From NCBI RefSeq assembly GCF_000002075.1, contig NW_004797508.1, forward strand, positions 25,681-89,680: a stretch of 64,000 bases of DNA, given 5' to 3'. How positions within the stretch are numbered: the first letter of the stretch is position 1; each line of letters opens with the position of its first letter. Positions 8,001-11,000 of this stretch are shown here, piece after piece. The position numbers and the translations under genes are program-made. The stretch comes from Aplysia californica. Lineage: Eukaryota. A model generated the notes under the pieces. The model saw only the letters and a list, made by a program, of their open reading frames with translations, ran no database searches and was not told where the DNA came from.

Positions 8001-11000
8001 AAGGTATCTCCACGATACTTATAATTCCGTTAAACAGCTTAAACGCTATATTGCCGGTAAGCAGAATGAAATGTTTTAAAACCGAAAAGCAACATTTTGC
8101 AGCCGAGACACACAAAAAAACTGTCAATTTTACCTACAACGTTTTTTATTTTGTTTTGTTTTGTTTTGTTTGTTTGTTTTTGTTTGTTTTTGGTTGGGTT
8201 TTTTTCCTGTTTTGTTTTGTTTTTACATTTAGAATTTGGATTTCGACAAAACATTTCTTGAGCGCATGCAGCCGACATCTGAGGTTAAGAATATATATGC
8301 AATTCTTTGAAATTCAATTTTGTTTGTTTAACTACTTCACTGCCAGGCCCGAGAGTTGAGTTGTCGAGTAGGTCTAAGAGTAAGAGTAAAAGGACATTCC
8401 TGCATTTTCTAAATCTCAGTTTATTAGAGATAAAAATTACTTGAAGGCTACTTTTTCGTTTGAAGTAATTAGAGCTTGTCTCCTCTTGTGAGCGACGCAA
8501 CATCGCGTCGTTTGTGGTCTTTGCCGCTGTAAAATCAATCAAGTAAGAATATAAAGAAACCGTCTCCTTACACGCGACGCGGCATCTGTCGCACGCGACC
8601 GTCGCCTGTGATCGGTCCATGTAGCGATCGAGGGCCTTGTCGCGTGCGACAGACTAGGGGTATGACAGGTTTAGAACATAACCATTGGTCAAATTACCTA
8701 GCCAAGGAGTGCCGGTCGAGACGCCATGNNNNNNNNNNNNNNNNNNNNNNNNNNNNNNNNNNNNNNNNNNNNNNNNNNNNNNNNNNNNNNNNNNNNNNNN
8801 NNNNNNNNNNNNNNNNNNNNNNNNNNNNNNNNNNNNNNNNNNNNNNNNNNNNNNNNNNNNNNNNNNNNNNNNNNNNNNNNNNNNNNNNNNNNNNNNNNNN
8901 NNNGACCCATTGTAAGTTTTGCGAATCTAATTTTGTTGCTTTGTCNNNNNNNNNNNNNNNNNNNNNNNNNNNNNNNNNNNNNNNNNNNNNNNNNNNNNNN
9001 NNNNNNNNNNNNNNNNNNNNNNNNNNNNNNNNNNNNNNNNNNNNNNNNNNNNNNNNNNNNNNNNNNNNNNNNNNNNNNNNNNNNNNNNNNNNNNNNNGGC
9101 TATTTACGGAATAAAAAATGTCAGAGGCTCGTAGCACTCCCATCTAACCGACTTCTTGTCCAGCTTGACATTAACATTTGGCACTGTCTCTCTTCTGTGA
9201 ATTGCCAGTCGTGCGCGGCTAAACGTCGCGTCGCACATAAGTAGACAGTTTGTCGCTCTTGTCGTACGAGACAGAACATTTTAGCGTGATGTGGTCGCGC
9301 ATAAGGATACACACCTCGCGACTCATCACTAGATCTAGTGACTATCGCGCGTCACTAAACGTTGCGTCGCGCATAAGGAGACATAGGAAGGGGTTTGGTC
9401 ACGTCGCTGTTCCCTCTCAGCCGTCAACAACATCGACCCCACAACGTAAGCGACAGTGAGCTGATCTTGCGGAGACCTCGGGGTTTACAAAACACTGTCC
9501 TCCCCTTCTCCCTTTCAAAATGTTTTTTTTATTTTTTTTGGTCAGAGCCATTCGAACATGGTGGATTAGAATTAAACGACGAAAAACTAATTACCTACCT
9601 TTAGAGATTAAAAGAAAACCATTTTGGTATGCAGAAATTAGACCAGTTAGTGAAAAGATGACCAGATATGTACATAATATTGTGAAAACTGTCTTCTTCC
9701 AACAAGTACATAATATGATTACGTCGCAAAGTATAGTCTATCAGAATTAAACTCCTGGGATTTGGCATGGCGTATGCAAACGAACAAAACTCATAAAATT
9801 AACAAATTTGTTCATTTTTCTTCAAGTTACATTAGTCTCCCCGAGACTACATACTTATAGTTCCCTCTGAGAGCATAGCATTGGTAGTACCACCGCCAAT
9901 CGCTTCTCGGCCTTTTGGCTAAGATCAAAGTGTAGTATCTGTTCTCAGCTTCTCCTCCGGCCCTGTGTCCACTGGTTTAGCGAGGCGGATACTGCCCGAG
10001 GCACCCGAAGGACGGAGAAATCTGCCCCTTTTCTATGGAGTGGACGGTCATCGTCTATAATTTTTTTTTAATTTAATAAGTACAACAGCCAATGAAGTTA
10101 TAACTGAGGCCTCAGTACTGCTAACTGTTGGCAATGGAGAGAGTTAGTGTTGGAATGGAGGGGTAAAGGTGTGTGAACGGTTTATTTGTTCGGGTGTAAC
10201 GCCATTCCTACCCCCTGCCATTGCACAAACACAAAAGGATATCAAGCCACATTGAACCATATGCTTTTACGACTGGTAATACAGATACATGCATATATGT
10301 AACAGGAATTCGTTTATACTTTTAGTCCAACCAGAGAGTCCGAGACAGGGGTTAATATATTTGAACAGCTGGCCGATGATATAGAACCCTATTGTAAGAC
10401 TTCCTGGATTCTTTCAGGACATGGAAGAAGCAGACGATGACTTCGCCTTTGTGACAGCAGGCTCGCACTCTACCTACCCGGCCACCATAGAATTCATCTA
10501 TTCAGTGCAGTATTTCTTCCCCAAGAGCAGAATAGGCATATTCGACATCGGCCTCACCTCAGACGAAAGGGAATTTGTGAGTTTTCATTATATCACAATG
10601 TTCTTTCCTTCTTTCTTCCTTTCCTTTGTTCTTTCTTTCTTTTTATTTATTTATTTATGTATTTATTTATTTATTTATGTTATGTTCATGCATCTATCCA
10701 TCTGTTTCTTTGCTGCTGTATTCATGTGCATTGTATTTATTCGTTATCCATACATTGTATTAATTATTTGATCTATGGGTGACAGCATCTGTGGTTTAAA
10801 TTAGGTCCCTTGCTGTTGCATACAGAAGACGTGAGTTCGATTCCAGAACAGGAAAGATATCTTATCAAGCATCGCTGTCCACTTGGTTGTAAATTCCCAC
10901 TTTGTAAGTTTCTTAAAAATCATCAAATTGAGTCATTAAAACATTTACAATCAATCATTCAGTTTAGTCGAACACAAATAACTCAGACACGTTGCAGATT

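Follow-up and report, generated by a model that had tools for sequence, protein, structure and literature searches.

Retroposons whose head derives from a spliceosomal RNA have been described from crocodilians, where Kojima (2015, PMC4494074) reported the families SINEU-1 to SINEU-3 and detected none elsewhere; this source, like those on U2- and rDNA-targeting elements cited below, is drawn on here in part. The transcription of these SINEs is treated in the sections used as an open question, no cDNA having been found. SINEU is listed as a class in the corresponding portion of the 2018 Repbase review, and in that of a survey of mollusc SINEs U2 heads are mentioned only through a citation of Kojima. 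Our literature search returned no report of a U2-headed SINE outside crocodilians; Repbase or Dfam may hold the present family under another name. Other close systems are the retrotransposons Keno and Utopia, which insert in U2 genes (PMC4640811, PMC6136364), and the SIDEs of 28S rDNA (PMC3414825).

Here the snRNA-headed SINE class is extended to a gastropod, Aplysia californica. The family was recognized from one copy in the window, i.e., the whole stretch of 64,000 nucleotides that was analysed. The genome holds all the pieces with which to test how promoterless snRNA-headed SINEs are transcribed, the question left open by Kojima (2015, PMC4494074): an intact U2-targeting LINE, young SINEs at the site of that LINE, an intact U2 promoter in front of one of these SINEs, and RNA reads. 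It further provides a natural series in which changes compensate each other within a stem, one that would mask the part of U2 active in splicing.

The Window Copy and Its Host Transposon

The head of the window copy (Table 1) is identical over 47/47 positions to nt 1-47 of all 10 intact U2 genes of the genome and is the sole Rfam match within the 64-kb window, where the U2 3' half was searched for and is absent. On these points, as on the places of the terminal hairpin and of the run of nine T, the original prediction, made from the letters alone, was right. The whole element equals the consensus of subfamily C1 at 152/159 positions, and after 160 nt it ends in a tail and a target-site duplication (TSD) with no ORF following; the 15-bp duplication framing it had been overlooked. 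The AT-rich tail with its T9 is likely a decayed poly(A) tail; among 66 family tails A5 occurs in 52 and T5 in 20, that of the window copy being T/A-rich.

Table 1. Coordinates of the window copy and its surroundings, with the SINE copies of the U2 arrays
Feature	Position	Strand	Remark
Host non-autonomous DNA transposon	8328..10355		TTAA-flanked, terminal inverted repeats
Octamer-like motif ATGCAAAC	9774..9781	+	Host-transposon sequence, not an snRNA enhancer
'PSE-like' stretch	9836..9858	+	Host-transposon sequence, unlike real U2/U1 upstream DNA
Left target-site duplication	9886..9900	+	15 bp; final two bases are also U2 nt 1-2
SINE head	9899..9945	+	U2 nt 1-47; subfamily C1; ancestral head state
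Masking stem, 5' arm (predicted)	9932..9950	+	Branch-point recognition sequence and LINE target site
SINE body	9946..10057	+	Non-U2 segment, repeat body
Masking stem, 3' arm (predicted)	9979..9995	+	Family fold
GAAA-tetraloop hairpin	10007..10028	+	Family feature, weakened in window copy
Terminal hairpin	10042..10056	+	Ahead of tail; retained in all subfamilies
AT-rich tail	10058..10078	+	T9 at 10061-10069
Right target-site duplication	10079..10093	+	13/15 equal to left copy
Array SINE copy 1	C516:532780		Full length; behind U2 upstream region identical over 300/300 bp
Array SINE copy 2			Internally deleted; precedes a LINE 5' end
Array SINE copy 3			5'-truncated, last 20 nt only; behind U2 nt 1-38
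Array SINE copy 4			Chimera with LINE broken off in ORF2; short microhomology

The DNA around the copy is a transposon bounded by TTAA on either side, at 8328 and at 10352-10355, which we take to be piggyBac-like by this hallmark; its inverted ends are whole in paralogs, the right end being partly deleted in the window. Between ~8469 and 9384 it is interrupted by other DNA, partly N and with short repeated motifs. Positions 9385-9900 are a repeat part of the transposon, and 9600-9898 as a query gave 166 candidates, all 39 scored non-self matches lying at 71-81% identity. The SINE is absent from 19/19 fetched host paralogs, which align up to 9900 and resume at ~10079, 11 of them with a joined empty site.

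A snRNA-type promoter had been proposed from an octamer-like and a PSE-like motif. The octamer-like 8-mer is indeed present, but both motifs are host-transposon sequence, and a perfect octamer (the motif as we assume it to be defined) occurs in 12/19 host paralogs without any snRNA or U2 head behind it. In the suggested alignment with the genes' upstream regions, the stretch from -68 to -42 agrees at 9-11 of 26 positions with those of U2 and U1, the level of unrelated pairs, and the upstream region of the real U2 genes is unrelated to that of the window. Because U1 and U2 upstream regions also match each other at just 9-11/26, with no common block, no species PSE can be defined from the comparison. 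Judged from its sequence, the apparent promoter belongs to the older host transposon and is not a promoter.

The window copy is almost certainly a dead SINE insertion inside a DNA transposon, retroposed, decayed and likely silent. The option of a U2-headed SINE among those first offered is borne out by dispersed TSD-flanked copies, a shared body and empty sites. That the copy is the 5' junction of a retrotransposon which targets U2 and uses its promoter is contradicted by the missing ORF, the flanking TSDs and the host-transposon DNA upstream. The fallback, an ordinary truncated U2 pseudogene whose tail is unique, is refuted as well: the tail is a shared repeat body, found in 39/39 scored matches. 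A U2-targeting LINE elsewhere in the genome likely moves the SINE family.

Two side observations concern the surroundings. A second, independent SINE insertion with its own TSD lies in the same host transposon family (L046, C782:241652), at a distance of ~15-20 nt from the site in the window, and may mark a secondary hot spot. A DUF1647-like gene likely has exons at 10421-10576 and ~11280-11385 on the + strand, the Pfam match being weak (E 0.012) and below the cut-off; relative to the first of them the SINE is upstream and in sense orientation, probably within an intron.

The SINE Family and Its Subfamilies

The window element belongs to a family of ~160-nt U2-headed SINEs whose dispersed members number in the hundreds and form graded subfamilies, at 87-99% identity to their consensus. 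As a query it gave 426 candidates, the best 41 rows of which comprised 39 other copies at 87-93% identity over the element only, and other U2 matches led to older homologous forms with 183 and 194 candidates, all these being overlapping counts and not copy numbers. The body is common to all 39 scored non-self matches, and the copies, dispersed in the genome, have A-rich tails and TSDs. A TSD score of at least 7 was reached by 46/100 non-redundant copies vs 7/300 controls with mismatched flanks. Among 66 close relatives, from which seven rows of one amplified insertion had been removed beforehand, 37 have a TSD, mostly 11-16 bp long with a mode of 13-15. Forty-seven of the 66 begin at U2 nt 1-5, and no 5' extension is shared among them.

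Nine entries (L084, L086, L090, L094, L096, L101 and L104-L106) were rejected as separate insertions, their equal flanks marking one insertion amplified in another repeat; all but one of this group were removed before counting, seven rows from the TSD count and up to 12 listed ids from the subfamily alignment. The 118 aligned copies fall into six groups, whose identity to consensus, inflated in small groups, is 88% in A (n = 28), 87% in B (n = 28), 96% in C1 (n = 5, window copy included), 96% in C2 (n = 32), 97% in D (n = 21) and 99% in E (n = 4), the youngest. The U2 head is kept in A, B and C1, and C2, D and E carry head changes which are absent from the U2 genes and linked to body variants, a linkage that points to master copies rather than one-off template switches. 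A U2-type head is found in 5/62 aligned C-E copies, i.e., the window copy and four others. In most subfamilies the branch-point recognition sequence is mutated.

The origin of the body was sought in known sequences. An Rfam search gave two chance hits and no family, and comparison with the LINE described below, UTRs included, revealed no similarity at E 1e-3, so derivation from LINE UTRs, a known RNA or a ribozyme was rejected. A hammerhead ribozyme in subfamilies A and B was likewise dismissed: a CUGAUGA-like piece is visible by eye, judged against the motif as we presume it to be, and the remaining core is missing. With the Pol III A and B box patterns that we assumed, neither box appears in any of the six consensuses; all six contain two T4 runs.

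Some copies are found within other repeats. A D-type SINE (L143, C38:1893655) has landed in an older SINE copy, within its U2-type head and ~8-13 nt upstream relative to the usual site; an A-type SINE (L127/L130, C411:209700-213300) is amplified within a tandem unit in at least four copies; and a dispersed relative of the LINE (L251, C49) lies within ~15 nt of the L090-group SINE in the same host repeat.

U2 Arrays and the U2-Targeting LINE

U2 and U1 genes share one 3.1-kb tandem unit. Such arrays were seen at C516:516000-552000, C2468 and C396, with upstream regions lacking an obvious common PSE; those fetched amount to 104.6 kb, or 0.011% of the genome, and contain the 10 intact U2 genes. 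Eight junctions in which poly(A) is followed by U2 from nt 37 onward occur in them, four being LINE ends and four ends of E-type SINEs, and exact genome-wide matches to the junction with eight A fall inside U2 arrays in 6/6 cases. The LINE is intact, with an ORF1 of 413 aa, in which a CCHC knuckle was recognized by eye, and an open ORF2 of 1126 aa with APE endonuclease (PF03372) and RT (PF00078) domains. Among the 120 matches listed for it there is no named Keno or Tx1 protein, and the nearest named relative among them is a land-snail protein at 42%.

The 5' junction of the LINE follows U2 nt 48, so that 12-13 bp are duplicated and the target is restored. The SINE head ends at nt 46-47, which is the end of the LINE's duplication, and its length matches the expectation for an insertion at the LINE site read from the start of U2. 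In the full-length array SINE (Table 1) the element's own variant head replaces the 5' end of the gene. The chimera of LINE ORF2 and SINE could result from either a template switch or a deletion. E-like youngest copies number eight, four dispersed and four in arrays, a ratio biased toward the arrays, which were fetched whole. The position of the youngest copies in U2 genes beside the LINE suggests that the family borrows the U2 promoter and the LINE's enzymes.

Eighteen dispersed relatives of the LINE were fetched, and U2 follows the 3' end in 0/8 of those in which this end is readable, so the array LINE lineage inserts off target too. The SINE and the array LINE share no 3' sequence, and 37 dispersed SINE target sites show no likeness to U2 (mean 5.03 vs 4.95 of 12). 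Three candidate links were tried and rejected. A 9-mer in the LINE 3' UTR, complementary to the target and considered as a guide, is present in young array copies but absent from 3/3 older relatives; AGATCT-rich DNA is not preferred in common by the SINE and the LINE (10/124 near bins vs 41/604 far bins, p 0.57); and the window's pre-insertion site, taken as a U2-like off-target, scores no better than background. Separately, LINE copies at C516:525416, C396:127181 and L254 have partial U2 heads without a U2 upstream region, as if LINE RNA might also start in U2.

RNA Reads

At the array locus, 26 and 40 reads came from two runs of poly(A) RNA, both belonging to one study and comprising ~15 million reads each; they are assignable to the youngest SINE subfamily and not to one copy. 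Coverage spans SINE nt 36-129, with a maximal depth of ~14.5 at nt 36-82 and 2-4 over the U2 part, and all reads covering the SINE are in sense. In these two runs no reads fall in the 375 bp upstream of the array SINE, and no sharp transcript start was called over it. In twelve reads (8 and 4) poly(A) and target sequence are joined to a head that is cut at ~nt 21; the fetched arrays contain no such junction. As to the window copy, a further run, X1, contains 0.80 of its words and is probably DNA, and runs with small shares, which match the U2 head only, were set aside.

Predicted Fold and Possible Masking of the U2 Head

The structured tail first proposed, with 9950-9958 paired to 10010-10019, is not confirmed: the 171 nt of the window copy fold no better than shuffles (z -1.05), and another fold is the one supported by the family. 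In each of the six consensuses nt 34-52 are predicted to form a stem with nt 81-97, covering the branch-point recognition sequence, and the pairing probability of this region is ~1 in B-E, 0.6-1.0 in the window copy and partial in A; in real U2 the same region mostly stays below 0.2. Against body shuffles, the energy of the head-body duplex stands out in B-E and in the window copy (p 0.001-0.011); in A it does not (p 0.10). The GAAA hairpin of the family is weakened in the window copy by private changes, namely one substitution and a 2-nt deletion.

In 14 hand-picked copies, one locus being represented twice, 93.6% of stem cells pair, vs 40-51% in slid controls, and four stem pairs are changed on both sides. 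Between the successive consensuses B-E pairing is kept by 7/7 stem changes, one of them two-sided, vs 29 of 77 rare single-copy changes, the other 48 breaking it (Fisher p 0.002); since the stem was derived from the very consensuses on which it was then tested, and since stem positions had a part in defining two of the groups, these figures are support and not proof. That the purpose of the stem would be to mask the U2 head is a proposition for and against which we see about equal weight, and roles in RNA stability or ORF2 binding are inferred alternatives.

A Possible Cycle and Its Rivals

We think it probable that transcription of the family starts from masters residing in U2 genes and that the array LINE moves it as a partner. 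Pol II would initiate at +1 of a U2 gene occupied by the SINE, reading the head, the body and the encoded poly(A), the transcript probably continuing into the remaining U2. The ORF2 protein of the LINE would then take the SINE RNA in trans, priming on the poly(A). On target, the nick would fall inside the branch-point recognition sequence, and the head of the cDNA would pair with and replace the 5' end of the gene, creating a new promoter-linked master; off target, promoterless copies with TSDs of 11-16 bp, such as the window copy, would arise. With its long head-body stem the RNA would not offer its U2 head to introns or U6, and array turnover would clear old masters, so that U2 genes would show the youngest subfamily only. 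No C1 master in a U2 gene was found in the fetched arrays, and the partner and promoter of the window's subfamily are therefore extrapolated from the youngest generation.

A stronger version, which we put forward tentatively and hold to be somewhat less probable than its negation, is that a promoter-renting SINE lineage persists by repeatedly overwriting U2 5' ends, that its masters make a capped chimera of U2 head, SINE, poly(A) and U2 3' half, and that at least five subfamily generations have been selected for a 16-bp stem which locks the branch-point recognition sequence against poisoning of splicing. If this is true, promoter-renting would answer the question of snRNA-headed SINE transcription, and a retroposon would disarm a captured spliceosomal RNA outside vertebrates.

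Dispersed sites that are not U2-like and the lack of common 3' sequence in SINE and LINE mean that another LINE could have moved the dispersed copies. These two facts, together with the long open frames of the distant LINEs C134, C735 and C3, are what speaks for an otherwise unlikely reading in which transcripts of the same SINE come mostly from host genes, through chance read-through, and any LINE that recognises poly(A) can move them, the copies in U2 genes being dead-end passengers of the U2-targeting LINE. Against it, the heads end at U2 +1, a 5' extension common to several of the 66 copies being absent, and the body reads are all sense; the TSD mode of 13-15 fits the 12-13 bp duplication of the array LINE, and the youngest subfamily is the one behind the U2 promoter.

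Transcription from U2-gene masters must also be set against an origin of the copies one by one, reverse transcription switching template each time to U2 snRNA from a LINE RNA or another one, by which the head would be added anew without any master. Switching onto snRNAs is described for SINEU-2 (PMC4494074), and a LINE/SINE chimera exists in the arrays; nevertheless, the linkage of subfamily-specific head changes, foreign to the U2 genes, with body variants largely refutes this reading; the rarity of U2-type heads among C-E copies also speaks against it, as does a body common to no LINE, which leaves it highly improbable.

That the window copy is instead a functional U2-variant gene of snRNA type, driven by a promoter of its own, from which the family arose, as could be imagined from a head identical to U2, a T9 that could terminate a Pol III transcript and an octamer-like motif upstream, is barely tenable given upstream DNA that is host transposon, a position between TSDs, private changes that weaken the GAAA hairpin, a T4 inside the head, T-rich tails in 20/66 copies, four other copies with the same U2-type head and the missing U2 3' half, i.e., the Sm site and 3' stem-loops, with the branch-point region predicted to be paired; the new branch-point-pairing RNA originally envisaged is not supported, given the same lack of a promoter, hundreds of decaying copies and a recognition sequence that is mutated in most subfamilies.

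Comparison With Known Systems

Like R2 and R2/R1 SIDEs (PMC3414825), which in the portion of that paper used here are non-autonomous elements in a multicopy RNA gene (28S rDNA), co-transcribed with it and moved by a resident site-specific LINE, the Aplysia family is tied to a multicopy RNA gene, together with which it would be transcribed, and would be moved by the LINE residing there. SIDEs are internal LINE deletions with a ribozyme, whereas the body here is unrelated to the LINE and has no Rfam ribozyme, and the present SINE keeps the 5' end of the host gene as its head and spreads genome-wide.

The array LINE targets the same part of U2 genes as Utopia and, like it, inserts in tandem in arrays, but Utopia has a restriction-like endonuclease in place of the APE domain (PMC4640811). 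Keno resembles it in having an APE endonuclease and RT and in inserting in the same U2 region, a likeness by domains and target site (PMC4640811, PMC6136364). By the portions of these sources used, the 3' flank of the array LINE starts 3 nt upstream of the quoted 3' target of Keno and Utopia, and 12-13 bp are duplicated with the target regenerated, giving tandem runs, whereas Keno destroys its target. The window element itself differs from Keno in being non-coding, without ORF1, EN-RT ORF2 or U2 3' sequence.

The closest likeness in description is to SINEU (PMC4494074): a retroposon of less than 500 bp in many copies, without coding capacity, whose head derives from U2, with poly(A), TSDs and subfamilies, without a Pol III promoter, with internal T runs, a presumed Tx1 partner and no tail shared with a LINE. 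All the features that mark the class, namely a U1 or U2 head, a non-coding multicopy body of less than 500 bp, poly(A) and TSDs, no Pol III promoter and oligo-T, are found in the Aplysia family. The host is a gastropod, Aplysia californica, and not a crocodilian; a conserved predicted stem would mask the head, a feature of which the SINEU text, as far as drawn on here, makes no mention; the head is single, of a fixed length of 46-47 nt, and ends where the LINE's duplication ends; the on-target site is the U2 gene, whereas SINEU prefers Mariner-N4_AMi; and a promoter-linked copy and RNA reads are seen here (PMC4494074).
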